From Patescibacteria group bacterium (lineage in GTDB: Bacteria > Patescibacteriota > Patescibacteriia > UBA1558 > GWA2-36-10): a DNA stretch of 64,000 nucleotides. The position numbers and the translations under genes were made by a program. The notes under the pieces are model-generated. The model saw only the letters and a program-made list of their open reading frames with translations. It had not been told where the DNA came from and did not search any database. Where the stretch lies: NCBI GenBank assembly GCA_018819405.1, contig JAHJQF010000001.1, forward strand, positions 665,676 to 729,675, given 5' to 3'. Positions 2,581-57,989 of the stretch are shown piece after piece; within the stretch, counting starts at the first letter, position 1; every line of letters starts with the position of its first letter.

Positions 2581-3873
2581 TTATTGTATAGTCAAATAAA
2601 AATTTTCTTCGGGAGTGAGAATAAAAAGTCTATCTCCTTTTTTGTTGAACAAATACATTTTCTTGCGGGGATTTTCCAAAAGATTGATGGTATTACGCTG
2701 GTCACGTCCGTCTATTTCAATCAGATTGGTGCGATCATTTATCTCAGAGATAAAATAACTACCATTGGGATGCCACATAATCTCCGAAACTAGATTGGAA
2801 GACCTATCAATCAGGCTTTGCCACTGATTTTTGTAATCAAAAAGGATTATTTCATGACCATTCGAAAGAAGTAGTCTCTCGTCGTGAAGCTCTGCCAAAG
2901 TCACTGGGATAGTGACCAGATCCTGAAAAGTATTTTTTATGTATAGCTTGGAGCCCATCAAGAAAATAAGATAATTATTGTCTGCTAGTAGGATTCTCAA
3001 ATTTCCGATACTGGCATCATTGATAAATTGTTTTGATTCTAGGGTGTAGCGGTCAAACTGCTCTATATAATTTTCTTTATCCAGAGTGTACTGGACAATC
3101 AGCCAGTTGCCTTCTATATCAAAGTCATTTATAGATTGATCAATTTCCAAGAGCTTATCAGGATAAGCAGAAGAGTCCCAAGGCTCTCGTCTTTCTTTTC
3201 GGTATAGTTTATTATCTTTGAGATATATAAAGGTAGAAGAATTTTCTTCCCAAAGTATTTTTTGGATTTTGTCCAAGAGCAGAGGAGTTAGAGTTTTTTG
3301 GTTGATATCAAAATAAAAATATTCGCTTTGATTTTTTAAAAGCATCATTTGATTGTCAGCTGACCAGTCTACTAGGTCAAAGTCTTCTTCCAGATTGAAG
3401 ACATCAAATTTTTTACCTTGCTCTACATCAGTAATTATCAATTTATTTTCGTCAATATAAGCGTATTGATATTTTTGTTTGTTTATCAAAAATCTGTCAC
3501 TGCCCTGACCCAAAAGAGTTTTTTCTCTGTTTTCCAAAAATAAAACAATATCTTCGGCAAAAGTAGTCTCGCCTGAGGAGACGTCAAGATTTTTTTGCCA
3601 ACTAACATATTTATTTTTACTGACCACTATTTTGTGTTTGCCTGGTTTTATGTTGAGCACCTGACTGGGGGTTTGACGTTTACTTTTTTGGTCATCCACA
3701 TAGATATCAGCCCCTCGGGGGTATGACTTAATATAAAAAGCGCCATTTTTTTCAATATTGCCAGTATCAAAATCATAGCGATAACCTAAAGAATAGACCG
3801 TTAGTAATGGGGCTATTATAAAAAATAAGAGAAAAAAGAAAGAATATGTAAGTCTACGCAGTGTTTTTTCCAT
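2581..3873 (-). CDS. Membrane-anchored PEGA-domain protein with a C-terminal beta-rich domain.
   Basis: There is an N-terminal transmembrane segment. The stretch FYIKSYPRGADIYVDDQKSKRQTPSQVLNIKPGKHKIVVSKNKYVSWQK matches the PEGA domain pattern. Confidence 0.55.
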   Translation of the reverse strand: MEKTLRRLTYSFFFLLFFIIAPLLTVYSLGYRYDFDTGNIEKNGAFYIKSYPRGADIYVDDQKSKRQTPSQVLNIKPGKHKIVVSKNKYVSWQKNLDVSSGETTFAEDIVLFLENREKTLLGQGSDRFLINKQKYQYAYIDENKLIITDVEQGKKFDVFNLEEDFDLVDWSADNQMMLLKNQSEYFYFDINQKTLTPLLLDKIQKILWEENSSTFIYLKDNKLYRKERREPWDSSAYPDKLLEIDQSINDFDIEGNWLIVQYTLDKENYIEQFDRYTLESKQFINDASIGNLRILLADNNYLIFLMGSKLYIKNTFQDLVTIPVTLAELHDERLLLSNGHEIILFDYKNQWQSLIDRSSNLVSEIMWHPNGSYFISEINDRTNLIEIDGRDQRNTINLLENPRKKMYLFNKKGDRLFILTPEENFYLTIQ

Positions 3874-4032: not shown

Positions 4033-5340
4033 ATGTCTAGTTTTATTATTCAAGGTGGAAAAAGCCTAGGAGGATCAATCAAAGTAGCAGGTTTTAAAAA
4101 TGCTGCTACTCCTATTATTGCCGCTTGTTTGTTGTCCAAAGAAGAAATCACATTACACAATGTGCCGCTTATTGAAGATGTCAAAAGAATGATCCAGATT
4201 TTGGTCTCTATGGGAGCTAAAGTCACTTGGAGTGACAAAAATAGCGTCAAGATTAATTGTGCGGATGTTGATCCATCTAAAATGGATATGAAACTGGTCT
4301 CTACTATGAGATCCTCCACACTACTTATGGGAGCATTAGTCGGCCGCTTTGGAAAACTGACTACCAAAGAGCCGGGCGGATGCAACATTGGGTCTCGTCC
4401 TTTGGACGCCCATTTTTTGGGTTTTAGTAAATTAGGTATTGATGTGATCAGAGACAAAGAAGATGACCGTTTTTATACTTTAGAAAAAAAACGTCCAGCG
4501 GAAGAAGAAATCACTTTGAGTGAATTTTCTGTGACCGGTACTGAAAATATGATTTTGGCTTCGGTATTAAACCAAGGCAAAGTACAAATAAATATTGCTG
4601 CGGCTGAGCCTTCAGTCCAGGATTTGTGCTGGTTTTTGCAATCAATGGGGGCAGATATAGAAGGTGTGGGCACTCATACTTTGGTTATACAAGGGGTCAA
4701 AAAGCTCAAAGGCGCCGAATATTACGTAATGCCAGATCCGATTGAGACCGGTACTTTTATATCACTAGCTGGTGCTACCCGTTCTAAGTTTGTCATAGAA
4801 AATGTGGCTCCTGATTTTATTGCTTTGGAAATTGAAAAATATCGTGAAGTTGGTTTGAAGATGGATATTAAATATATTGACCTAAAACCAAACGGTAAAT
4901 ATAGACTGGCCAATATTACGGTGGACGGCAAAGTAGAGCTAAAAGCTATCAAAAAGCTTCATGACATGCCTCATCCAGGCTTTGCCCCAGATCTTATCCA
5001 GCCTTTTACAGTTATGATGACTCAGGCTCAGGGCACTTCATTGATACATGATTGGATGTATGACGGAAGGCTCAAGTATATAGCCGAGCTCAAAAAAATG
5101 GGAGCTAATATTGTCGTGTCTGATCCCCACAGGATAGTAGTGATAGGTCCTTCGCCTTTGTTTGGTAAGGAAATAACCAGTTTTGATTTACGAGCTGGAG
5201 CAACACTTATTATTGCCGCTTTATCAGCTTCGGGAGAATCCAAACTAACTAATATCTATCAGGTAGATAGAGGATACGAAATGCTTGATAATCGTTTGTC
5301 ACAATTGGGAGCCAAAATACAAAGAGTTGACCAAGATTAA
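4033..5340 (+). CDS. murA: UDP-N-acetylglucosamine 1-carboxyvinyltransferase.
   Basis: The N-terminus IQGGKSLGGSIKVAGFKNAATPIIAACLL is typical, and the catalytic Cys loop GGCNIGSRPLD is present. A length of 435 aa fits the EPSP-synthase fold. Confidence 0.9.
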   Translation: MSSFIIQGGKSLGGSIKVAGFKNAATPIIAACLLSKEEITLHNVPLIEDVKRMIQILVSMGAKVTWSDKNSVKINCADVDPSKMDMKLVSTMRSSTLLMGALVGRFGKLTTKEPGGCNIGSRPLDAHFLGFSKLGIDVIRDKEDDRFYTLEKKRPAEEEITLSEFSVTGTENMILASVLNQGKVQINIAAAEPSVQDLCWFLQSMGADIEGVGTHTLVIQGVKKLKGAEYYVMPDPIETGTFISLAGATRSKFVIENVAPDFIALEIEKYREVGLKMDIKYIDLKPNGKYRLANITVDGKVELKAIKKLHDMPHPGFAPDLIQPFTVMMTQAQGTSLIHDWMYDGRLKYIAELKKMGANIVVSDPHRIVVIGPSPLFGKEITSFDLRAGATLIIAALSASGESKLTNIYQVDRGYEMLDNRLSQLGAKIQRVDQD

Positions 5341-11854: not shown

Positions 11855-12604
11855 ATGTATATCTCTCTAGATATCGGTGCTACCAATACCCGTATGGCAG
11901 CTAGTCAATCTCTAGATGATGTCCAGTTGACTGCTAAAACTATTTTCCCGACCAATCAATTTTTTGAGTCTGGTATCTCAGAAATTATAATAAAAATCAA
12001 AAAAATTTCAGAACATCCTGAAGCAATTGGTATTGGGATTGCTGGTCGGGTGTCTGAGGGTGAACTGGAGGCCTCTACTAATCTGCCGGATTGGGTAAAT
12101 AAAAAATTAGTCAAAAGACTAAACAATGAATTTGATTGTCCGGTTTATATAGCCAATGACGCTGTGGCTCAGGGTTTGGCGGAAGTTTATTTTGGTCACG
12201 GCTTAAAAGAAAAATTTTTGTATCTGGTCTTAGGTACCGGCTTGGGAGGAGCTATAGTAGATGGTCAAAGTAAAAAAGCGGGCTCTATAAAATTTGATAG
12301 GGAGTTTTTGAGGACTTGGGAGCAAAAATTTGGTGGCAAGAATATAAAAAACATATTTGGCAAATCAGCTGAAAATTTGTCAGACAGCCAGTGGCAAATA
12401 GTGACTGATGATTTTAGCGATTGTATCAAAGATTTGTCTAGTAGAGTGTCGGTAAAATATATTATCTTAAGTGGTGGTATGATAGATAAACAAAAAGATA
12501 GATTTGTCAGGGCTTTATCTAATATCCAAAAGCCAAAGATTTTGTTTTCGGACTTGAGAGATGATATTGGATTATATGGTAGTTTAGCTTTGATAAAAAA
12601 ATAA
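11855..12604 (+). CDS. ROK/BadF-type sugar kinase (glucokinase or N-acetylglucosamine kinase-like).
   Basis: The motifs ISLDIGATNTRMA, ANDAVAQGLAEVYFG and LVLGTGLGGAIVDG match ROK-family kinases. Confidence 0.65.
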   Translation: MYISLDIGATNTRMAASQSLDDVQLTAKTIFPTNQFFESGISEIIIKIKKISEHPEAIGIGIAGRVSEGELEASTNLPDWVNKKLVKRLNNEFDCPVYIANDAVAQGLAEVYFGHGLKEKFLYLVLGTGLGGAIVDGQSKKAGSIKFDREFLRTWEQKFGGKNIKNIFGKSAENLSDSQWQIVTDDFSDCIKDLSSRVSVKYIILSGGMIDKQKDRFVRALSNIQKPKILFSDLRDDIGLYGSLALIKK

Positions 12605-12635
12605 AAAACAACCCGTCGGGTTGTTTTTTTGTTGT
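12603..12635. terminator. Bidirectional intrinsic terminator shared by the convergent ROK-kinase and speH genes.
   Basis: The sequence is aaaaaacaacccgtcgggttgttttttt. Confidence 0.55.
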
Positions 12636-12992
12636 TTATCCTCTATATATATTATGAAATTTCATTTTTTTACCTTTGAAAAAATCTCGGCAAAACTTTT
12701 TGGCTTTTGGTGTAGAAAATTTCTTGCAGCTAAAGATATCAATAAAGACCCGATTGTATATTTCGTCACAATGTACAGTGATATTTGATGTTTGTATCAG
12801 CTGTACAGCTGTATTGCCTTCTAGGTCACCGTCGCCAAACCTTTTGACTATTGGTTTTCCATAAGGAACCATATCAATTTCTTTACACAGATCCAGGCAG
12901 AATTTTCCCAATCCCTTTTTATTAGTAATTGGCTCCCTGTCACAGTCGTAAAGATCAATGGACAAAAGCTGTCCCCAGATTTTTTTATTCAT
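12636..12992 (-). CDS. speH: Pyruvoyl-dependent S-adenosylmethionine decarboxylase proenzyme (SpeH-type).
   Basis: LLSIDLYDCDREPI aligns with the LVAEFYECDREVL region. NTAVQLIQTSNITVHCDEIYNRVFIDIFSCKK aligns with [32 protein letters not shown], and the processing Ser is retained. Length is 118 aa. A TTGATA-N17-TAAAAT promoter lies upstream. Confidence 0.75.
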   Translation of the reverse strand: MNKKIWGQLLSIDLYDCDREPITNKKGLGKFCLDLCKEIDMVPYGKPIVKRFGDGDLEGNTAVQLIQTSNITVHCDEIYNRVFIDIFSCKKFSTPKAKKFCRDFFKGKKMKFHNIYRG

Positions 12993-13117
12993 CTCTTTTA
13001 CATAAAATGCTAAAAGCTTAGTTAATTAAATGTTTGATAATTTTAGCAGAAAGATTTTAAAATATCAATACTTTTTGGGTTATTTGTGGATATCTTTTTA
13101 AAATCAGGGGGAGTATA

Positions 13118-13192
13118 ATGAAAATATGGAAAAGATCAATGATATATGTTACTATGTTTAATAGATTAGATCATTATAATAGGATATATTAA
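13118..13192 (+). CDS. Candidate 24-codon mini-ORF (MKIWKRSMIYVTMFNRLDHYNRIY) with a strong SD. Speculative.
   Basis: It has an SD of the form cagggggagtataATG, which is unusual in this SD-poor backbone. A palindromic hairpin (ctagccaaggtggctag) plus a T-run follows directly. It sits immediately upstream of the repeat-peptide gene. Confidence 0.2.
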   Translation: MKIWKRSMIYVTMFNRLDHYNRIY

Positions 13193-13300
13193 GAAAATCT
13201 AGCCAAGGTGGCTAGGTTAAAGCAACTCTTTTTTTGAAAGGAGGATTTTGTCAGAAGACAGTGCCGCTTTAAACCCTCCACCCCACCTGGAGAGAAAACC

Positions 13301-13609
13301 ATGAAGAAAGTGTTGTACATCGTCATTTTCGCGCTGTTTTCATATTCGCTGGCCTTGGCCGGCGATCCCATCGATGGCAACGACGAGCCGATGAGGTCTG
13401 CTACGACCACGTCTGTGGCCGGCGATCCCATCGATGGCAACGATCATCCGATGAGGTCTGCTACGACCATGTCTGTGGCCGGCGATCCCATCGACGGCAA
13501 CGATCATCCGATGAGGTCTGCTACGACCACGTCTGTGGCCGGCGAACCCATCGACGGAAACGACGGACCGGTATATCTGTGGCAGGTGATTTTCTACCTG
13601 CTGTTCTAG
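13301..13609 (+). CDS. Secreted repeat peptide. A signal peptide is followed by 3.5 copies of a 20-aa unit (A)GDPIDGNDHPMRSATTTSVA and a hydrophobic C-tail VYLWQVIFYLLF.
   Basis: An SD (ggagagaaaaccATG) precedes it. The cleavage site looks like SLALA|G. The repeats are perfect in-frame 60-nt copies, and a terminator hairpin (ggggcacctattagctagtaggtgccc) plus a T-run follows. The locus is GC-rich and the antisense ORF is judged spurious. Confidence 0.6.
   Translation: MKKVLYIVIFALFSYSLALAGDPIDGNDEPMRSATTTSVAGDPIDGNDHPMRSATTMSVAGDPIDGNDHPMRSATTTSVAGEPIDGNDGPVYLWQVIFYLLF
13358..13570 (+). repeat. Tandem direct repeat: three complete 60-nt units (13358-13417, 13418-13477, 13478-13537) and a partial fourth copy.
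   Basis: The unit is gccggcgatcccatcgatggcaacgatcatccgatgaggtctgctacgaccacgtctgtg, with 2-4 substitutions per copy. Confidence 0.9.
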
Positions 13610-13710
13610 AGCCGGCATCAATCCAACCGGGGCACCTATTAGCTAGTAGGTGCCCTGTTTTTTATTATAAACTATAGCTACTATTGTGTTATATTGTTTA
13701 TTTTTGCAAA

Positions 13711-13739
13711 TTGACAATAAACTAATTTTATAGTATTAT
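13711..13739 (+). promoter_or_regulatory. Sigma-70-like promoter for tRNA-Gln(TTG), TTGACA-N17-TATTAT.
   Basis: TTGACA lies at 13711-13716 and TATTAT at 13734-13739, about 20 nt before the tRNA 5' end. Confidence 0.5.
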
Positions 13740-13759
13740 ATCTGCGTATTTTGAACTAT

Positions 13760-13833
13760 TCGGGGATCGTCTAATGGTAGGACAACGGGTTTTGGTCCCG
13801 TCAATCGGGGTTCGACTCCCTGTCCCCGAGCCA
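13760..13833 (+). tRNA. tRNA-Gln (anticodon UUG), with CCA encoded.
   Basis: The cloverleaf was folded by hand. The acceptor stem is tcgggga/tccccga with the U1-A72 pair characteristic of bacterial tRNA-Gln. The D-stem is gtct/ggac. The anticodon stem is acggg/cccgt with loop ttTTGgt. The T-arm is cgggg-ttcgact-ccctg. The discriminator is G and CCA follows. Confidence 0.9.
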
Positions 13834-13961
13834 AACGAACAAGGTGAGTGTAGGCTCGGGTTAAAAAAATCCGAGTCGAAGACGAGGTTCCTAAGATGCT
13901 GTGCAATAGCACAGCGCCCCGAGCCAAACGAACAAGGTGAGTGTAGGCTCGAGTTAAAAAA
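13834..13961 (+). other. Conserved tRNA-Gln 3' trailer module of 93 nt ending in a copy of the tRNA 3' end (GCCCCGAGCCA), followed by a 35-nt partial tandem repeat of its own 5' part. A hairpin terminator follows at 13962-13992.
   Basis: The module 13834-13926 is about 89% identical to 57353-57445, downstream of the second tRNA-Gln. It contains the hairpins cccgagcc..ggctcggg and gctgtgcaatagcacagc. The segment aacgaacaaggtgagtgtaggctcg(g/a)gttaaaaaa occurs twice, at 13827-13866 and 13927-13961. Confidence 0.5.
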
Positions 13962-14052
13962 TAGATGAAATTTATATTTCATTTTTTTATTTGTATATTT
14001 TTTTATTAGATGATAAAATTTAAATCAAGATTGTTAATTCTTATATTATTTT

Positions 14053-14271: not shown

Positions 14272-14427
14272 TGAATAAAGATTTTTTTAGGAAAATAAAT
14301 TACAGAGCTCTTGGGCTCTGTTTTTTGTTCCTATTATATTGACATAATAAGTTATTTATATTATAGTTAAATGTTAATTTAGGCACTTTGAAAAGTGAGT
14401 GTTTTCAAAACAGAGGGAGGCAGTAAA

Positions 14428-15609
14428 ATGCGCGCTAGCACAAAGAAAAGTCAGTTTGTCGCCTTGTTTGTTGTTTTTTTGGTCATGGCCATTGGTTTTG
14501 GCTCTGGCTTTGGAAGCGATGAACAGGTGATGGAAATTTGGCACTGGCAAGAGGATTGGCGTCTGGGCGGAGAAGACGAGAGTTTTATCTTCGCCTCAAT
14601 TAGCAAGGTGCTTTTGGGTCATGACAACAATTTGTACATCTTGGATGGCAGAAGTTCCAAGATTTATGTTGTTGCTGTTGCCGATGGCAAGCACCAAAGA
14701 ACCATCAGCATTTCTGGCGAAGGGCCAGGTGAGCTCAGTTTTTCCGGCAATATGTTTTTGATGGGTGATGAGCACATTGGTCTTTTGCGGACCACTCCGG
14801 CCAAAATCGTCTATATTGATTACCAAGGGAAACCTGGGCCAAGCATTTACTTGAATGAGAATCCTTCTGGCATGTTTCTCTCTACCTTTGCCAAATGGCA
14901 AAATGGTATATTGGTTATTGCCGGAAGCAATTCTATTCCCGGAGAAACTTGGCTCGGCCAATACGTTGAGTATGGTGAGAAGTTTCGTTATGTCAACTAT
15001 CCTTTGCGTTCCTTGTTTCTTGAACAAAAGTTAGTGGAAGAGGATACCTATTTTTACTCTTACAAACCTTGGGATCTTGATAAAGATGGCAATCTTTATC
15101 TTGCTCCTTATTGGGGTGATAAGAGTAAAAATGAATATCACTTCAATGTATATGACACGCAGGGGAAAAAGCTACGAGAGATCAGTCATGAATTTGAGCC
15201 ATACGAGCGTTCAAATGAGGAGAAACGCTTGGCAAAGGCTTCACTTGTGGGCGGTGTCGAGGACTTGAAGATGATGGAGAGCTTGGGCGGTGAATGTGTA
15301 GTTGAAGATATTGCGCCAAATATCTTTGACATTACCATTCACTCTGATGGTAGGATTTGGGTGGAAACCAGTCGTAGCGCAAAGAATCAGCCCGAGGGCA
15401 TATTCAAAACCTACGACATTTTCCTGCCAAGTGGCGAGTTTTCCCATCGGGTAGCGCTAGCTTTGCCGGCCAACGGAGAAAAAGACATAGTTTACTTTAT
15501 TTCTGACGACCAGCTCATTGTGGTCAAAGGCCAAAAAGATATATTGAGTTTTGGCGCGTATCCGGATGCCGATGTTTTGGAAATTATTTGCTACTCTCTA
15601 TCAAGGTGA
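14428..15609 (+). CDS. Secreted hypothetical protein (about 393 aa) with a signal peptide; possibly a beta-propeller fold.
   Basis: The SD gagggaggcagtaaaATG places the start at 14428; the track ORF begins earlier, at 14395. The N-terminus is MRASTKKSQFVALFVVFLVMAIGFGSG. GC content is moderate. No family was recognised. Confidence 0.5.
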   Translation: MRASTKKSQFVALFVVFLVMAIGFGSGFGSDEQVMEIWHWQEDWRLGGEDESFIFASISKVLLGHDNNLYILDGRSSKIYVVAVADGKHQRTISISGEGPGELSFSGNMFLMGDEHIGLLRTTPAKIVYIDYQGKPGPSIYLNENPSGMFLSTFAKWQNGILVIAGSNSIPGETWLGQYVEYGEKFRYVNYPLRSLFLEQKLVEEDTYFYSYKPWDLDKDGNLYLAPYWGDKSKNEYHFNVYDTQGKKLREISHEFEPYERSNEEKRLAKASLVGGVEDLKMMESLGGECVVEDIAPNIFDITIHSDGRIWVETSRSAKNQPEGIFKTYDIFLPSGEFSHRVALALPANGEKDIVYFISDDQLIVVKGQKDILSFGAYPDADVLEIICYSLSR

Positions 15610-15734
15610 TAGAGAAAGGAGGTCAAGAGAGGTCAATAAGTATATTGGCCTCTCATTTTTTTTGATCAAAAAAAGAGGACTCGTTTGTAACAGTGACGAG
15701 TCCCCGGAAGAAGTGTCTGGCGCCGAGTTGGTGT

Positions 15735-16058
15735 TTAGGCGCGCAGATGATAGGTGGTCACGGTGTCGCCGGCGTCGTCGACCTCGATAATAGTCGTTTC
15801 TTCGACGTTCTCCGCGGGACCTTGCACGAAGTCCCATTCCCATTCCTGGCCCTCCAGCTGCATGTAGGCCAGACACATCGCGTTCCAGCCCCAGGACTCC
15901 CAGTTGTGCTCCTCGGCTGCTGTGCAAGCGACCGGAAGCAAATCCTGCTCCTGGGTCTCCGAGGAGACAACAGCGGCCTCACTGGTCTGAGGCATGATCA
16001 TGATGATGACACCGATCGCCAAGAAGGCGATGAGTGCCATCGTGGTGAGCTTCTTCAT
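15735..16058 (-). CDS. Small secreted Trp/Glu-rich hypothetical protein (107 aa, signal peptide), GC-rich.
   Basis: The sequence is MKKLTTMALIAFLAIGVIIMIMPQTSEAAV.. with an upstream SD (gggaagagaggaagagATG). Bidirectional hairpins lie downstream at 15625-15735. The overlapping ORFs 15601..15927, 15693..16124 and 15758..15982 are judged spurious. Confidence 0.45.
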   Translation of the reverse strand: MKKLTTMALIAFLAIGVIIMIMPQTSEAAVVSSETQEQDLLPVACTAAEEHNWESWGWNAMCLAYMQLEGQEWEWDFVQGPAENVEETTIIEVDDAGDTVTTYHLRA

Positions 16059-16145
16059 CTCTTCCTCTCTTCCCTTTGGGGTTGGCGGTTACTTGGAATT
16101 TACTATAAGTCTCCTTTGTTCTAGAGTGACGGCCACAATGTAATC

Positions 16146-16805
16146 CTAGGGTGTTTTTGCGGCCAGTGTACCAACGATTCCTATTCTAGTTGGGTCTATG
16201 TCCAAGCCAATGAGTTGGTATTGGCTGTACTTTTTGGGTAAACGGACATAAACAGCATTGGGCCGTTTATTGTAATCCGGTTTATTGTTGAATTGCCGGT
16301 TGAAGACAATAGTGCTTTGCCTTGAATCGTATGGCTTGCCCACATTGCCTTCATAGTAAACAGCTAGACAACCAAGGTCATCGGTTTCCACAATAGAGCT
16401 GTCTGGCGTCAAAAATCGGAAGTGAAAGGCTTTTTGAGAGATATTGATGTCTACTCCATCTTTGATGAAAAATCCTAGGACATAGAAAGCAAAATTTTGC
16501 TTTCTGATTTCCCGTCCCATCATGATTTCCAAGGGGCGGGTCCTTGGTAACGTAGCATCAAACTGTGCGAGCACATCGCTAGGTGCGTTCATACCACGCA
16601 GAGTTTCTTTTTTGTCTGCCATCTGGCTTTCAAACTTGGCGATGTTGAACCAACCGCCCTTGACGATTTTGAAGGAGCTGGTGCTGACCAGCTCATTGTG
16701 GTGGGACTTGGTGGTTGCCTGTGTTTGAATTTGTTGATTGGTCACAGCACAGGCCGAGACCAAAAACACACTTGCCAGCAGGATGATATGTAGAAGGCGT
16801 TTCAT
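16146..16805 (-). CDS. Putative lipoprotein of unknown function.
   Basis: The SD aagaggagctaaaATG precedes it. The signal peptide ends in a lipobox (LVSAC). A promoter-like TTGACA lies upstream at about 16905, minus strand. GC content is moderate. Confidence 0.6.
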   Translation of the reverse strand: MKRLLHIILLASVFLVSACAVTNQQIQTQATTKSHHNELVSTSSFKIVKGGWFNIAKFESQMADKKETLRGMNAPSDVLAQFDATLPRTRPLEIMMGREIRKQNFAFYVLGFFIKDGVDINISQKAFHFRFLTPDSSIVETDDLGCLAVYYEGNVGKPYDSRQSTIVFNRQFNNKPDYNKRPNAVYVRLPKKYSQYQLIGLDIDPTRIGIVGTLAAKTP

Positions 16806-16924
16806 TTTAGCTCCTCTTAGGTCCCAAAAAGAACCTTTTGCTTCAGGGTTAGAGAGTTATTTCAAAGGACCATTCACTTATATCTTTATCATTTTCTTTG
16901 TTTTTTGTCAATATTTAAAAAAAG

Positions 16925-17576: not shown

Positions 17577-17655
17577 TTGGGACCTCCTATGTTCTGATTT
17601 GGCAAAACAAAAAAACGTCCCAACAATGAGACATTTTGTGTACGCCAAACCAGCG

Positions 17656-17889
17656 TCAATGCCGGTTGCGCTACTGACTCCCCATTGCCCTTGTCTCGAC
17701 ACTAAGTCGGACTAAGCGCCCAATTAATAGGCAACGGTTCTTCGTCTCATTGATTTTATAGAATCCTTTCTGTTTTGAAAGAGCTTGATTTATCAAAAAA
17801 ACACCTTTTTGAGGCGTTCCGACAAATCAAGCATCTGTTGCTTTGTTAATGTCGGTTACGCTACTAGCTCCCGACTGCCCTTAGCCTCG
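17656..17889. repeat. Two imperfect 43-nt direct repeats (17656-17698 and 17847-17889) flanking a 12-bp-stem hairpin (gcttgatttatc..gacaaatcaagc). They lie in the roughly 400-nt leader of the response-regulator gene.
   Basis: caatgccggttgcgctactgactccccattgcccttgtctcg and taatgtcggttacgctactagctcccgactgcccttagcctcg match at about 33 of 43 positions. A minus-strand promoter TTGACA-N17-TACTAT lies at 17987-18015. Confidence 0.4.
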
Positions 17890-52625: not shown

Positions 52626-55097
52626 ATGCTAGATTACATTGTTATAGGGTTTATAATATTATTTTTCTTAACCGTAATAACTATTCTATTACGCTGGCTT
52701 TACATACGTTGGGGTGACAAAAGTAACAAAGGAGTATCCTTTGTTGTTTTACGTATAAAGGTTCCCCAATATTCTACTCAAGAAAAAGACAAAGAAAATA
52801 AGGAATATATCCAAAATAGTTTAGGTCAAATTGAAAATTTTTTTACAGTGCTAAGTGGCTTAAAGGCTCAGCGCAAAATAAGACGAACTGATTTATTTTC
52901 TATAGAGCTGGTCTCAGATAGTGGTATTATAAATATATATGCTGCTATGCCACCATCTTTAAAGGATTTTTTTGTGGAACACTTGCAATCTGTCTACCCA
53001 CATATACATTATGAAGAAGTGAGTGATTATAATATATTTCAGCCAAATGGCGTGATACTTGCCGGATCTCTTCGTTTTGCTAGGGATTATAGTCTACCTA
53101 TTAGGACTTACCGTAAGTTTGAAAATGACCCAATGGAGTCAATTACTAATGCTTTGAGTAAGCTAAATGAAAATGAAGGCGCGGCAATTCAATATGTTTT
53201 CCGTTCGTCTAAGTCAAAATGGCATTCTCGTGGCCGAAAAATAGCTCAGCATATGCACCGGGGCTTGACTTATAATGAGGCTTTGAAAAAAGCGGGGGGA
53301 GGGGGAGGATTTTTTAATACTAGCGCCAAAATTTTTGGTTTTTTTATAGATTTCTTTACAACTCGTGATCCTAATAAAGAAAAAGAAAAAACACCAGAAC
53401 CACAGCCATTATCTGCTATGGAGCAAGAAAGAGCCAAAGGTATGGAAGAAAAAACTGCCAAATCAGGTTTGGATGTCAATATTCGGATGGTTGTTTCTAC
53501 ACCATCTAAGGAAAGATCTACAGCCATTCTTTCAGATATAATGAATAGTTTTTCCCAATACAATATATATGAATTTGGTAATAGTTTCAAAATTTTTTTA
53601 CCGAGAAATATTGATACTTATGTAGAACATTTTATATACAGACATTTTGTTCCTCAAAACAGTATGCTTCTCAATTCTGAAGAAATGACCAGCGTTGTCC
53701 ACTTACCTATACCTGGCACTCATACTCCAAACATTGATTGGTTAGGAGCAGTGGAAGCTGCCCCACCAACCAATATGCCTACTGAGGGTATTATTTTAGG
53801 TTTAAATACTTATCGTGGTAAAAAGACTGTAGTGCGTATAAAAGATGAGGATAGGCGTCGTCATATGTATGAGATTGGTCAAACGGGCACTGGTAAATCC
53901 GTATTTTTAGAAAGTCTAGTTATTCAGGATATAGAAGCTGGCAGAGGCGTTTGTGTCTTAGATCCACACGGCGACCTAGTAGAAAAAGTCTTGGCCCATA
54001 TTCCAAAAGAAAGAGCTGAAGATGTAATTCTTTTTGATCCCTCTGATGTTGGTAGACCAATGGGTATGAATATGTTGGAATTTGAGACTGAAGAACAAAA
54101 AAGTTTTGTGATCAATGAAATGATTGCTATTTTTGATAAATTATATGATCTCAAAGCAACAGGTGGGCCTATGTTTGAGCAGTATATGAGAAATGCCATG
54201 TTGCTTATTATGGAAGACAAAGAATCCGGGGCAACACTTTTAGAAATCCCCAAAGTTTTATCGGATAGTTTATATAGGAAACAAAAATTAGAAAAAGTAA
54301 AAAACTATTTAGTTCGTGATTTTTGGGAAAAAGAAGCCCAAAAAGCTGGTGGTGAAGCATCACTTGCCAATATGGTACCTTATATCACCAGTAAGCTGAC
54401 ACCTTTTCTTTCCAACGACCTTATTCGTCCTATTGTTTCTCAGGAAAAGAGCGCTTTCAATTTCAGAAAAGCCATGGATGAAGATAAGATTATTTTGGTC
54501 AACCTGTCTAAAGGTAAGATTGGTGATATGAATAGTAGTTTGCTGGGTATGATTGTGATTGGTAAAATACTATATGCTGCTTTGAGCAGAGTAGACATGC
54601 CAGAAGACCAACGAAAAGATTTTTATCTTTATATTGATGAGTTTCAAAATTATATTACCGATAGTATTTCTGTAATTTTATCAGAAGCTAGAAAATATAA
54701 ATTAAATCTTATTTTGGCTCATCAATTTTTGGCTCAGTTGGTCAAAAATAATGATACCCGAATCAAGGATGCTGTGTTTGGAAATGTAGGCACTATAATT
54801 TCCTATAGGATAGGTGTAGATGATGCTGAGGTAATAGCCAAACAAATGGCTCCAGTTGTATCAGAATATGATCTGTTAAACATGCCCAAGTATACCTGTT
54901 ATGTAAAACTTTTGATAGATAATCAAAATCCACCAGCTTTCAATTTTATGCCTGTTTTACCTGAAAAAGGAAATTATGAATTAGCCAAAACAATCAAAGA
55001 GTTGTCTCGCTTAAAGTATGGTAGAGATAAACAAGTAGTGGAAAATGAGATCAGAATACGTTCAAATATTGTAGCTGATCCACCAAAAGTGGCCTAA
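52626..55097 (+). CDS. Membrane-anchored VirB4/TraC/HerA-class P-loop ATPase (type IV secretion-like).
   Basis: An N-terminal transmembrane segment and a domain of about 400 aa are followed by Walker A YEIGQTGTGKSVFLE, then VCVLDPHGDLVE (the D-x-G-D/E motif typical of VirB4/HerA). Walker B is FYLYIDEFQNYI. The C-terminus has LNLILAHQFLAQL. Length is 823 aa. Confidence 0.5.
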   Translation: MLDYIVIGFIILFFLTVITILLRWLYIRWGDKSNKGVSFVVLRIKVPQYSTQEKDKENKEYIQNSLGQIENFFTVLSGLKAQRKIRRTDLFSIELVSDSGIINIYAAMPPSLKDFFVEHLQSVYPHIHYEEVSDYNIFQPNGVILAGSLRFARDYSLPIRTYRKFENDPMESITNALSKLNENEGAAIQYVFRSSKSKWHSRGRKIAQHMHRGLTYNEALKKAGGGGGFFNTSAKIFGFFIDFFTTRDPNKEKEKTPEPQPLSAMEQERAKGMEEKTAKSGLDVNIRMVVSTPSKERSTAILSDIMNSFSQYNIYEFGNSFKIFLPRNIDTYVEHFIYRHFVPQNSMLLNSEEMTSVVHLPIPGTHTPNIDWLGAVEAAPPTNMPTEGIILGLNTYRGKKTVVRIKDEDRRRHMYEIGQTGTGKSVFLESLVIQDIEAGRGVCVLDPHGDLVEKVLAHIPKERAEDVILFDPSDVGRPMGMNMLEFETEEQKSFVINEMIAIFDKLYDLKATGGPMFEQYMRNAMLLIMEDKESGATLLEIPKVLSDSLYRKQKLEKVKNYLVRDFWEKEAQKAGGEASLANMVPYITSKLTPFLSNDLIRPIVSQEKSAFNFRKAMDEDKIILVNLSKGKIGDMNSSLLGMIVIGKILYAALSRVDMPEDQRKDFYLYIDEFQNYITDSISVILSEARKYKLNLILAHQFLAQLVKNNDTRIKDAVFGNVGTIISYRIGVDDAEVIAKQMAPVVSEYDLLNMPKYTCYVKLLIDNQNPPAFNFMPVLPEKGNYELAKTIKELSRLKYGRDKQVVENEIRIRSNIVADPPKVA

Positions 55098-57278: not shown

Positions 57279-57352
57279 TCGGGGATCGTCTAATGGTAGG
57301 ACAACGGGTTCTGGTCCCGTCAATTGGGGTTCGAGTCCCTATCCCCGAGCCA
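57279..57352 (+). tRNA. tRNA-Gln (anticodon CUG), with CCA encoded. It lies 10 nt after the dnaX stop.
   Basis: It has the same cloverleaf as 13760-13833 with 4 substitutions. The anticodon loop is ttCTGgt. The U1-A72 pair, the G73 discriminator and CCA are present. Confidence 0.9.
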
Positions 57353-57445
57353 AGCGAACAAAGTGAGCGCGGGCTCGGGTTAAAAAAATCCGAGTCGGAG
57401 ACGATGTTCCTAAGATGCTGTGCAATGGCACAGCGCCCCGAGCCA
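57353..57445 (+). other. Second copy of the conserved tRNA-Gln 3' trailer module (ends GCCCCGAGCCA). It is followed by the hairpin tgaaccgttacggttca, a third CCGAGCCA occurrence and a terminator-like hairpin.
   Basis: It is about 89% identical to 13834-13926. Both hairpin stems are conserved, and the substitutions fall in the loops. Confidence 0.5.
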
Positions 57446-57611
57446 TGAACCGTTACGGTTCATAGCCGAGCCAGCTAGAAAAAGACGAATATTGTTTCGC
57501 CTTTTTTGTTTATTAAAAAACGAGTAGGGACTCGAACGGGCAGAAGTGAGATTATAGTATTTTTAATATATTTATGCTAATATATAAGCAGATAAAAATT
57601 AATCTAAAACC

Positions 57612-57989
57612 ATGAAAAAAATACTATTATTACTTTTGCTGTTTGCGCCAAAATTAGCTAGTGCTTCTACGCCACCCTCAGACCCTTCAGACCCTTGGGG
57701 CATCAATGACTTTTCCAAAACTAATATTGCCTTGGGCAGTAAACCACTACGTGAGACAATTGGTGGGGTCGTCAATATTGCTTTAGGATTTTTAGGAATT
57801 TTGACTACTTTACTTATCCTGTGGGGCGGCTTTAAATGGATGACTTCTGCTGGTAACTCTGAGCAGGTTGATCAGGCCAAAAGAATTATTAGTGCCGGTG
57901 TCATTGGATTGATTATTGTATTGAGTGCTTATGCTATTTCAAGATATGTCTTGATAGAATTACGTAAAGAAACTGTTGAAGGTGTATAA
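57612..57989 (+). CDS. Small secreted membrane protein with a signal peptide and two hydrophobic helices. A VirB2/TrbC-like pilin is one reading; this is uncertain.
   Basis: The sequence is MKKILLLLLLFAPKLASAS.. followed by two hydrophobic helices (VVNIALGFLGILTTLLILWGGF and SAGVIGLIIVLSAYAISRYVLI) separated by a short polar loop. Confidence 0.4.
   Translation: MKKILLLLLLFAPKLASASTPPSDPSDPWGINDFSKTNIALGSKPLRETIGGVVNIALGFLGILTTLLILWGGFKWMTSAGNSEQVDQAKRIISAGVIGLIIVLSAYAISRYVLIELRKETVEGV

Follow-up and report, generated by a model that had tools for sequence, protein, structure and literature searches.

A structured trailer module ending in a copy of the tRNA 3′ end recurs behind tRNA-Gln genes of Patescibacteria

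Why would a tRNA gene be followed, 93 nucleotides (nt) further on, by a second copy of its own 3′ end? The question is raised by a 64,000-nt stretch of DNA from a Patescibacteria group bacterium (contig JAHJQF010000001.1 of assembly GCA_018819405.1, positions 665,676 to 729,675, forward strand), referred to here as the window. An original prediction, made from these letters alone, described a tRNA-Gln(UUG) gene with a 93-nt trailer ending in a tRNA 3′-end mimic, and a second such trailer behind tRNA-Gln(CUG). We find that the trailer belongs to a family of modules located directly 3′ of tRNA-Gln in related genomes, with conserved helices and a strand that can pair with either copy of the tRNA end. 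Our tentative preference is to see it as a cis-acting RNA gate or decoy on pre-tRNA-Gln, spread by recombination at its repeated ends.

Both tRNA genes were called by ARAGORN (ttg and ctg) and by the Rfam tRNA model (58.6 bits for the UUG gene, 56.9 bits for the CUG gene), in agreement with the isoacceptors predicted, and both encode CCA. Together with repeat analysis, these calls confirm the UUG gene and its 93-nt trailer ending in a copy of the tRNA 3′ end. The two loci are laid out as follows, with the helices named here described further below.

13711 to 13739, +: promoter-like site, TTGACA-17-TATTAT (11/12, consensus match only), about 20 nt upstream of tRNA-Gln(UUG)
13760 to 13833, +: tRNA-Gln(UUG) with encoded CCA (ARAGORN ttg and Rfam); its 3′ end, CCCGAGCC at 13825–13832, is the 5′ arm of hairpin H0
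13834 to 13926, +: class A trailer module, copy 1, 93 nt (covariance model R1, 128.1 bits, E = 1e-35)
13927 to 13961, +: partial second unit with P1 and the switching strand only (GGCTCGAG), a direct repeat of the trailer's first 35 nt (6-bp helix with the tail of the first module, p = 0.037)
13964 to 13988, +: AT-rich hairpin and T-run, probable intrinsic terminator of the tRNA-module transcript (left unscored by a terminator scan that requires GC)
57279 to 57352, +: tRNA-Gln(CUG), directly downstream of dnaX (ARAGORN ctg and Rfam)
57353 to 57445, +: class A trailer module, copy 2 (R1, 121.3 bits), with the switching strand at 57372–57379, HP3 at 57417–57434 and the tail at 57435–57445
57446 to 57473, +: 28-nt mini-module (by repeat comparison), a hairpin AUGAACCG-UUA-CGGUUCAU and then AGCCGAGCCA, the third copy of the 3′ end
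57480 to 57507, +: hairpin and T-run (gacgaatattgtttcgcctttttt), probable terminator from its sequence

Both 93-nt modules terminate in CCCCGAGCCA, and the trailer at locus 1 ends in GCGCCCCGAGCCA. The core CCGAGCCA occurs eight times in the window against 0.54 expected, a count reached by none of 100 shuffles, and the third copy at locus 2 lies at 57466–57473. An anchored pattern of tRNA and repeated end gave two matches in the window, against 0.00 expected. At locus 1, a 45-nt direct repeat (13824–13868 and 13917–13961, spacing 93, 98% identical) bears out the claim that the first 35 nt of the trailer recur at 13927–13961, ahead of a hairpin terminator. The module and the extra end copy predicted at locus 2 are likewise present, although the two modules are 91% identical (85/93) and not 89% as first stated; the tRNAs match at 70/74 positions. 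Outside the block formed by tRNA and module the two loci are unrelated, with 17/60 and 20/60 identities over 60 nt on each side, the level of random sequence. Among the eight differences between the modules, two form one compensatory pair (A-U to G-C), five fall in loops and one breaks a pair, which corrects the earlier description of changes confined to loops. A chance origin of the trailer pattern is excluded, and the observation is real.

How the module is built bears directly on what its end copy could do. The original prediction placed a cccgagcc arm within the trailer. That arm is in fact the 3′ end of the tRNA itself (13825–13832), and it pairs with GGCTCGGG at 13853–13860 to form H0. 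The elements of copy 1 are these.

13835 to 13849, +: P1, a small hairpin A-C-[GA]-AC-AAG-GU-[GA]-G-U with tandem G.A pairs and a triloop, forming the apical part of H0 (covariation)
13853 to 13860, +: switching strand GGCTCGGG, complementary both to the tRNA 3′ end (13825–13832) and to the tail (13918–13925)
13871 to 13887, +: H3, a second tandem-G.A hairpin, CC-GA-GUC-GAA-GAC-GA-GG (G.A/A.G in 7/7 sequences; one pair changes from CG to UA)
13890 to 13897, +: CCUAAGAU, nearly invariant and single-stranded (the AAGATGCT columns are invariant in the alignment)
13898 to 13915, +: HP3, a 7-bp hairpin GCUGUGC-AAUA-GCACAGC that borders immediately on the tail, placed much as a T-arm would be (covariation)
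13916 to 13926, +: tail GCCCCGAGCCA, a copy of the acceptor 3′ strand, discriminator and CCA (repeat comparison)

The part of the module that matches the tRNA is only 10 nt long. Other class A subtypes have an unrelated Watson–Crick hairpin at the position of H3, or none. Short frames run through HP3 in the window at 13895–13942 and 57414–57464 (MLCNSTAPRAKRTR, stop), and we considered a peptide gene, as an invariant AUG inside HP3 opens a frame of 14–25 codons with GAGG/GGAG 8–9 nt upstream in some copies. This candidate was rejected because the variable sites are first codon positions that change in pairs which keep the hairpin.

Does the module occur elsewhere? The best relatives of the window's DnaX belong to Komeilibacteria/Parcubacteria, and the gene order dnaX, tRNA-Gln(CUG), pilin gene is conserved in relatives. 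Scanning metagenomes with a pattern tied to the tRNA T-arm and a repeated 3′ end yielded 33 loci (related loci from all searches are numbered here with the prefix L); a DnaX-based scan of genome contigs was dominated by distant DnaX genes and added one close relative. Fifteen distinct class A sequences were found directly 3′ of tRNA-Gln, with both anticodons represented, in relatives whose DnaX is ∼65–73% identical. Relatives at ∼72% DnaX identity have homologous trailers (L005, L007/L008, L009), with a diverged form in L003. In relatives, the covariance model matched strongly at 21 places, each of them immediately 3′ of tRNA-Gln and on its strand; within the window it matched at the two known modules alone (128 and 121 bits; next match, 13 bits). 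This recurrence in many related genomes, with class A in at least 13 further sequences from Komeilibacteria-like Patescibacteria, agrees with the original view of a conserved element rather than a one-off integration scar. The loci could be sorted into several families of modules, each ending in the tRNA-Gln 3′ end.

Class A: the type present in the window
Class B: terminator, acceptor-5′-like strand, GGAUGAGAAGUUUA-hairpin-AAUCC, then 19 nt of the tRNA 3′ end
Class D: ends in ...GGGUCCCCGAGCCA
Class X: a 63-nt module, an inverted copy of the 5′ motif and switching strand

To assess structure, we aligned the 15 distinct class A modules and set three helices by hand: the outer helix (upstream 3′ end with GGYUC), P1 (R-C-[GA]-AC-NNN-GU-[GA]-G-Y) and HP3. 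RNAalifold, unaided, recovers only HP3 (GCUNNNC-AAUA-GNNNAGC), in which one pair of columns, 86–95, takes five pair types (GC5/UA4/AU2/CG2/UG1). Within P1, columns 14–28 covary (AU6/GC6/UA2/GU1), as do 15–27 and 19–23. Across the three helices 93.8% of cells are paired, compared to 24–41% in a control with slid partners. Changes on both sides were seen in 7 of 16 pairs (26 cells), and the covariation score was reached by 0 of 500 shuffles. The predicted pattern of stem-preserving substitution is therefore present at a level above the controls. The module remains 57–91% identical across genomes in which intergenic DNA is otherwise unalignable, the block of homology comprises exactly the tRNA and the module between random flanks, and sequences between the hairpins are invariant. 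Judged by this conservation beyond the flanks and by the compensatory changes, the class A module fits a structured non-coding RNA.

These data also bear on the view that the trailers are neutral remnants, either decaying integration scars or a segmental duplication of the tRNA and its flank, functionless as RNA or DNA. Integrative elements classically leave a tRNA 3′ end behind in direct repeat, two high-GC loci from other phyla (L099 and L109) do look like ordinary scars (another locus of the scan, L107, is a true tandem tRNA pair), and the nearest relative has no module at all. A decaying scar, though, would not be expected to keep 57–91% identity amid unalignable DNA, compensatory changes in all three helices and invariant single-stranded motifs, nor would its homology stop exactly at the tRNA 5′ end and the tail. 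We regard this explanation as very improbable.

Of the pairings available to the module, those of the switching strand are the most telling. Across class A this strand is 5–10 nt long, reads GGYUC... and is complementary to tRNA positions 72–75/76; in 15/15 sequences both the tRNA end and the tail are possible partners of GGYUC. Covariation of this strand with the tRNA end is seen in L091, L007 and L095, and the tail follows the tRNA sequence in L091, L007, L089 and L101. The covariation is three-way in L091, with UCUCCGAGCCA as the tRNA end, CUCCGAGCCA as the tail and GGUUCGGA as the switching strand, and again in L007, where tRNA end and tail are both GAACCA and the switching strand is GGUUC. 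When the two partners are not alike, the strand forms its longer helix with the tRNA end and its shorter one with the module's own tail (10 versus 7 in L095, 9 versus 7 in L005). The original prediction had proposed a different switch, ctcgg/ccgag versus cccgagcc/ggctcggg, but the ctcgg/ccgag hairpin exists in a subset only and cannot form in several homologues. From the alignment, the conserved alternative pairing is that of GGYUC with the tRNA end or the tail. As modelled, these helices share a strand, would be mutually exclusive and are conserved, as expected of a two-state switch.

We then folded 13 tRNA–module precursors in silico, using an energy model that omits tRNA tertiary structure and co-transcriptional folding. 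The tRNA 5′ acceptor strand pairs with the mimic tail in 13/13 predicted folds, with base-pair probabilities of 0.71–1.00, and a fold constrained to contain H0, in which the true 3′ end is locked to GGYUC, is the minimum-energy structure in 11/13. The alternative, a cloverleaf with a closed module, lies 0.4–8.4 kcal/mol higher. As energy models ignore tertiary contacts and the order of folding, the two states are best seen as close in energy. HP3 adjoins the tail much as a T-arm adjoins the acceptor 3′ strand; in classes B and D, too, a hairpin comes right before the end copy, and two class B modules are predicted to fold as complete minihelices with a free GCCA. The earlier suggestion of a 3′-end decoy or regulator fits both the three-way covariation and these alternative folds.

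Combined, these features suggest how the trailer might work. A promoter-like site precedes the tRNA (the terminator of the gene upstream is at 13628–13657) and terminators come only after the last module, so the module is probably part of the tRNA-Gln precursor. The class A module would then be transcribed between the encoded CCA and the terminator, and its end copy would give the precursor two mutually exclusive folds. In one, an ordinary cloverleaf would form and the switching strand would close on the module's own tail. In the other, the true tRNA 3′ end would be locked in H0 by the switching strand while the tRNA 5′ acceptor strand takes the mimic tail, which with its adjoining hairpin would imitate the stack of acceptor stem and T-arm. 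The tail would be a copy of the tRNA end because one strand must pair with either end, and the tRNA 5′ strand likewise. The module may thus act as a cis gate or decoy on the maturation or availability of tRNA-Gln, and the precursor could be termed a 'pro-tRNA'. Cleavage after either CCA would free the tRNA and a ∼93-nt RNA with a tRNA-like end. At locus 1 the partial second unit includes P1 and a switching strand, so the tail of the first module could also be held in an H0-type hairpin. We infer the transcription, the switch itself, the effect on maturation and the existence of a trigger (ligand, protein or nuclease). A more far-reaching version, which we consider unlikely, would be a new form of tRNA control: the 3′ end of pro-tRNA-Gln is locked by the trailer, the mimic captures the 5′ strand, release comes from a trigger, which may be a metabolite, a protein or RNase P with its matching arms, and the modules are exchangeable cassettes. 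They might even be circularisable RNAs, as both ends of a released unit, 5′ and 3′, lie next to each other on one splint.

A broader rule, by which each CCA copy would be sequestered by the sequence that follows it, was tried on 64 junctions and rejected: 23% reached p ≤ 0.05, and the rule holds only before class A/D starts and a few terminators. Terminators that overlap the tRNA end were observed separately. In L001 (4569–4606), the 3′ strand of a terminator with no module before it (AAUUUGGCUU) can pair with the tRNA end (GAGCCAAGUU) over 10 bp (0/300 shuffles), and terminator stems in L092 and L121 also reach over CCA.

Several observations weigh against an RNA gate. In the nearest sampled relative (DnaX 85%), an identical tRNA-Gln(CUG) is followed directly by a terminator (L001), and the UUG locus (L127) lacks a module as well, from which it follows that the module is dispensable. 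The number of units differs between near-identical strains, L007 with two full units and L008 with one, and mixed arrays (A+X, D+A, A+D-mini) occur. The modules of L096 and L097 are 99% identical while their tRNAs match at 69/74 positions (93%), and the tail of the class D module in L108 does not follow the tRNA sequence. That the modules are always beside tRNA-Gln is partly built into a metagenome search anchored on the tRNA end, and recombination alone can maintain the identity of tail and tRNA. In the helices, G.U and C.A mismatches stand at only ∼8:5, which makes the signal for an RNA strand weak and a role for the hairpins in single-stranded DNA possible. Finally, the tertiary structure and co-transcriptional folding that the energy model omits favour the cloverleaf.

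This pattern also modifies the original idea that trailer and tRNA-Gln were co-duplicated. The module is indeed found at both tRNA-Gln loci, but its absence in the nearest relative, its varying copy number among strains and the contrast of 99% and 93% identity indicate that the module is acquired, lost and homogenised without the tRNA following suit. Within one lineage, the two loci carry modules that are each other's closest relatives (91% for the window pair). Absence from close relatives, which the original prediction held would tell against it, is seen in the nearest relative and not across the clade. Homogenisation between two loci, gain and loss, and variation in unit number point to frequent recombination or insertion at the repeated ends. 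For an RNA gate, the repeated ends would make the module recombination-prone, and recombination there would place copies in tandem, mix modules in arrays, homogenise those of the two tRNA-Gln genes and remove some altogether.

The same behaviour is what one would expect if the modules were miniature non-autonomous integrative elements, or cassettes, with the tRNA-Gln 3′ end (CCGAGCCA) as their attachment or target site, the main alternative to an RNA gate and one that we find doubtful but possible. The relic attachment cores suggested in the original prediction would be a possible route of spread at the level of DNA. A recombinase or single-strand transposase from elsewhere would insert them, the core would be duplicated at each insertion, the hairpins would serve recognition as single-stranded DNA, and the modules would be selfish and their RNA incidental; this scenario, too, seems to us conceivable rather than probable. 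The inserted DNA lies between direct repeats of the tRNA 3′ end, the same core ends every module of every class, and presence or absence at the same site (L001 and L127 without a module) and copy number are polymorphic among close relatives. Unrelated modules share arrays, one module occurs at two loci, and module ends are conserved around a middle that is variable or missing, as in non-autonomous elements. The layout at locus 1, a 48-nt insert between 45-nt repeats, is that expected from a circle integrating via a shared segment. In the L095 genome, modules lie only beside the tRNA-Gln that ends in CCCCGAGCCA; another tRNA-Gln with a different acceptor end has none.

Against such cassettes, no integrase, transposase, reverse transcriptase or other recombinase domain was found among the 20 open reading frames (ORFs) neighbouring both loci, which cover part of a 1-Mb genome. 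Homologues are also lacking in the viral contigs, phages and plasmids searched: scans of viral contigs with two exact 18-mers and with degenerate HP3-plus-tail, tRNA-anchored and P1-plus-switching-strand patterns gave 0 matches each, and blastn against phages and plasmids gave none. A class B motif did match viral contigs 45 times, never near a tRNA-Gln end, and these matches are therefore attributed to chance. The inserts (28–165 nt) are far below the size of known integrative elements, and the duplications are irregular in length (8, 10, 14, 19 and 45 nt), unlike a fixed target-site duplication. The cassette explanation also has to accommodate strong conservation of internal unpaired sequence over deep divergence and an internal complement that follows the tRNA sequence, which a simple attachment-site (att) model does not require. 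In ∼750 kb of related DNA, no copy is inverted or apart from tRNA-Gln. Large islands behind the tRNA were considered and set aside, as no convincing distal copy of the tRNA end was present within the loci. With respect to IS200/IS605 elements, the end hairpins P1 and HP3 are unlike each other, and no Y1 transposase was seen among the scanned ORFs around both loci.

A further clue comes from the RNase P RNA of the window (38484–38963; RNase P class A, ∼480 nt, 192 bits), which has two long extra arms.

38486 to 38578, +: extra P3 arm of RNase P RNA, its strands carrying the module 5′ motif (CGAACGGAGUGAGU-GGUUC) and its complement (GAACC-ACUCGCUUUGCUCG)
38849 to 38932, +: extra P19 arm of RNase P RNA, with ACUCACUUCGUUCG in its 5′ strand, exactly the reverse complement of the start of the L094 module (12/14 for the window's own modules)

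The 3′ strand of P3 reads CGAACGGAGUGAGU-GGUUC, like a module start, and its 5′ strand shares 14 nt with the start of the class X module. The P1 motif, CGAAC-NN-AGUGAGU, has eight occurrences in the window where 2.15 would be expected, a number attained by none of 100 shuffles; three lie in trailers and four in the RNase P arms. In the nearest relative, RNase P RNA (L124) is 353 nt long, ∼130 nt shorter, and has no such arms; L125 also lacks both. The P3 arm is present in the L095 genome (L123), a distant relative. In these three genomes, trailers and arms occur together (window, L095) or are both absent (nearest relative). Comparison of the sequences thus suggests that trailer and RNase P are possibly linked, whether by interacting, by binding the same protein or by belonging to one repeat family. 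That the motif sits in arms missing from the nearest relative would also suit mobile cassettes.

If the link were a repeat family, the 5′ part of the trailer would be a hairpin-forming dispersed palindromic repeat that has colonised tolerant sites in stable RNAs (tRNA-Gln trailers and the P3/P19 loops of RNase P), with the rest of the module as passenger. A parallel is offered by the small palindromic elements that have entered RNA genes in other reduced genomes. The excess of the motif in trailers and both arms, the lack of arms and trailers alike in the nearest relative, and the inverted motif and switching strand of module X are in keeping with this. Yet the P3 arm is conserved in the distant L123, and hence is not a recent insertion, no intergenic copies occur elsewhere in the window, and HP3, the tail and the tie to a single tRNA species are left unexplained. 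We give this possibility little credence.

If the link were instead an interaction, the trailer could be a stand-alone small-RNA gene riding the tRNA-Gln promoter, freed by tRNA-type processing at the two CCA junctions and functioning in trans. Its tRNA-like tail would serve only 3′-end definition, stability or CCA repair, and its partner might be a protein or the RNase P arm with the complementary motif; both parts of this proposal appear rather improbable. Discrete, conserved, structured units bounded by CCA are what such a gene would look like, tandem units would be cut into monomers, and an analogy exists with functional 3′ external transcribed spacers (3′ETS) of tRNA operons. The 14-nt motif of the module's 5′ hairpin is complementary to the RNase P P19 strand, exactly in L094 and at 12/14 positions in the genome studied here. 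However, it is with the upstream tRNA end, a contact in cis, that the module covaries most strongly, the RNase P strands are already paired in cis (−47 and −54 kcal/mol for the two arms), and the nearest relative dispenses with the module.

The surroundings of the two loci show some features of their own. Past the terminator of locus 2, at 57525–57550 (+), TAGGGACTCGAAC is an exact inverted copy of 13 nt of the T-arm, fused to the motif-like GGGCAGAAGTGAG; L092 (∼4905–4936) shows the same inverted arrangement, built from its own T-arm sequence (AAGGATTCGAACGGGCAGCAATGAG). Read on the minus strand, the inverted T-arm element lies between promoter-like and terminator-like sites. The tRNA-Gln(CUG) gene and dnaX are part of a conserved cluster (52626–55097 and 57612–57989; L001–L008) that includes a TrwB/VirD4-like ATPase (DUF87/T4SS-DNA_transf) and 1–3 T4SS-pilin genes, followed by uppS and a beta-propeller protein. 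Near tRNA-Gln(UUG), a c-di-GMP-II riboswitch lies ∼3.8 kb away at 17651–17758 (−; 59.7 bits). The L095 genome has a tandem c-di-GMP-II pair (3568–3651 and 3721–3804, −) at a similar distance from tRNA-Gln, which indicates that this neighbourhood is syntenic. The flanks of tRNA-Gln(UUG) at ∼12600–13600 and 14400–16900 have a G+C content of 0.43–0.46 versus ∼0.34, with tangled ORFs that have no Pfam matches, and in the nearest relative (L127, 7400–7900) a clearly high-GC gene stands beside the same tRNA in a rearranged locus. By their composition, these surroundings may be a hot spot for foreign DNA.

Is the module already known under another name? The Rfam comparison proposed in the original prediction left the trailer without a matching family. 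At the gathering threshold, Rfam 15 finds only RNase P, c-di-GMP-II and two tRNAs in the whole window, and only tRNAs and c-di-GMP-II in 16 related loci; a permissive scan of 13700–14050 (E ≤ 10) returned only noise of 13–17 bits. Neither ARAGORN nor the Rfam tRNA model calls the trailer a tRNA or tRNA pseudogene. Self-cleaving ribozymes (hammerhead, twister, pistol, hatchet, hepatitis delta virus-like) gave no Rfam match at E ≤ 10, although no test aimed at the hepatitis delta virus-like fold was made, and the GA...GA hairpins, by eye, lack the hammerhead CUGA/GAAA core. Comparison by eye and with Rfam only gave no match to group I/II introns, hammerhead, kink-turns, integron attC sites or IS605 ends. 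A literature search on tRNA trailers or tRNA-Gln in Patescibacteria, or the candidate phyla radiation, returned no reports.

The consequences differ with the nature of the module. An RNA gate would mean that tRNA maturation or availability is controlled in cis by a trailer that copies the tRNA's own acceptor end, in host-dependent Patescibacteria that are poorly understood. We know of no earlier case of cis gating by a trailer of this kind. The tRNA concerned is one that many bacteria charge by the indirect (transamidation) route. Already now, the module offers a compact candidate RNA of ∼93 nt with clear covariation, ready to be made a new Rfam family, with a possible link to lineage-specific RNase P RNA arms. 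If instead it acts as DNA, it would be a site-specific cassette of a class smaller than any described, directed at a tRNA end and with no recombinase beside it. In either case, current annotation leaves these segments blank, and island finders that rely on repeats of tRNA fragments would misread them.

The closest kinds of known system are functional tRNA 3′ spacers, tRNA-like mimics and att-site arrays, and the module does not share all the defining features of any of them. Among the spacers, E. coli 3′ETS-leuZ reportedly acts in trans as a sponge for small RNAs. The trailer resembles it in being RNA between a tRNA 3′ end and a terminator, expressed from the promoter of the tRNA and kept for a function of its own. 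Unlike that trans-acting sponge, which has no tRNA-end copy, the trailer has both a copy of the acceptor strand with CCA and a strand complementary to the tRNA end; it also occurs in modular arrays and in Patescibacteria.

Mimics of tRNAs or minihelices include mascRNA, the 3′ tRNA-like structures of plant viruses and the tRNA-like domain of bacterial YrlA. The module shares with them a hairpin stacked on an acceptor-like strand ending in NCCA, and class B is predicted to fold as an acceptor and T-arm minihelix. Class A, by contrast, has no 5′ acceptor strand of its own and would borrow that of the tRNA, and it is not called a tRNA. In riboswitches and attenuators a switching strand is shared by two helices, and the T-box pairs with the NCCA end of a tRNA. 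Here, too, one strand has two possible partners and the acceptor end of a tRNA would be read by base pairing. The partners, though, are identical sequences in cis, the object controlled would be the tRNA itself rather than a downstream gene, and the trailer lacks the conserved elements of the T-box (no Rfam match).

Integron cassette arrays are defined by attC hairpins, a GTTRRRY core, IntI and attI. Tandem modules recall them in their short units, conserved structure with variable sequence, identical end core and a hairpin over each junction. They differ in that a GTTRRRY core, IntI and attI were not seen, a tRNA gene serves as the anchor, and the junction lies in the 5′ arm of a hairpin on the coding strand. 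When set beside att duplications left by tRNA-targeting elements, as reviewed in PMC5704250, the modules stand out in that their inserts are 28–165 nt and not kilobases, are structured and conserved with compensatory changes, and have no integrase nearby and no phage or plasmid found to bear a matching attP. They share with those duplications, and with the tandem accretion of cis-mobilisable elements covered by the same review (PMC5704250), the repeats of the tRNA 3′ end, the arrays with multiple cores and the polymorphism among strains.

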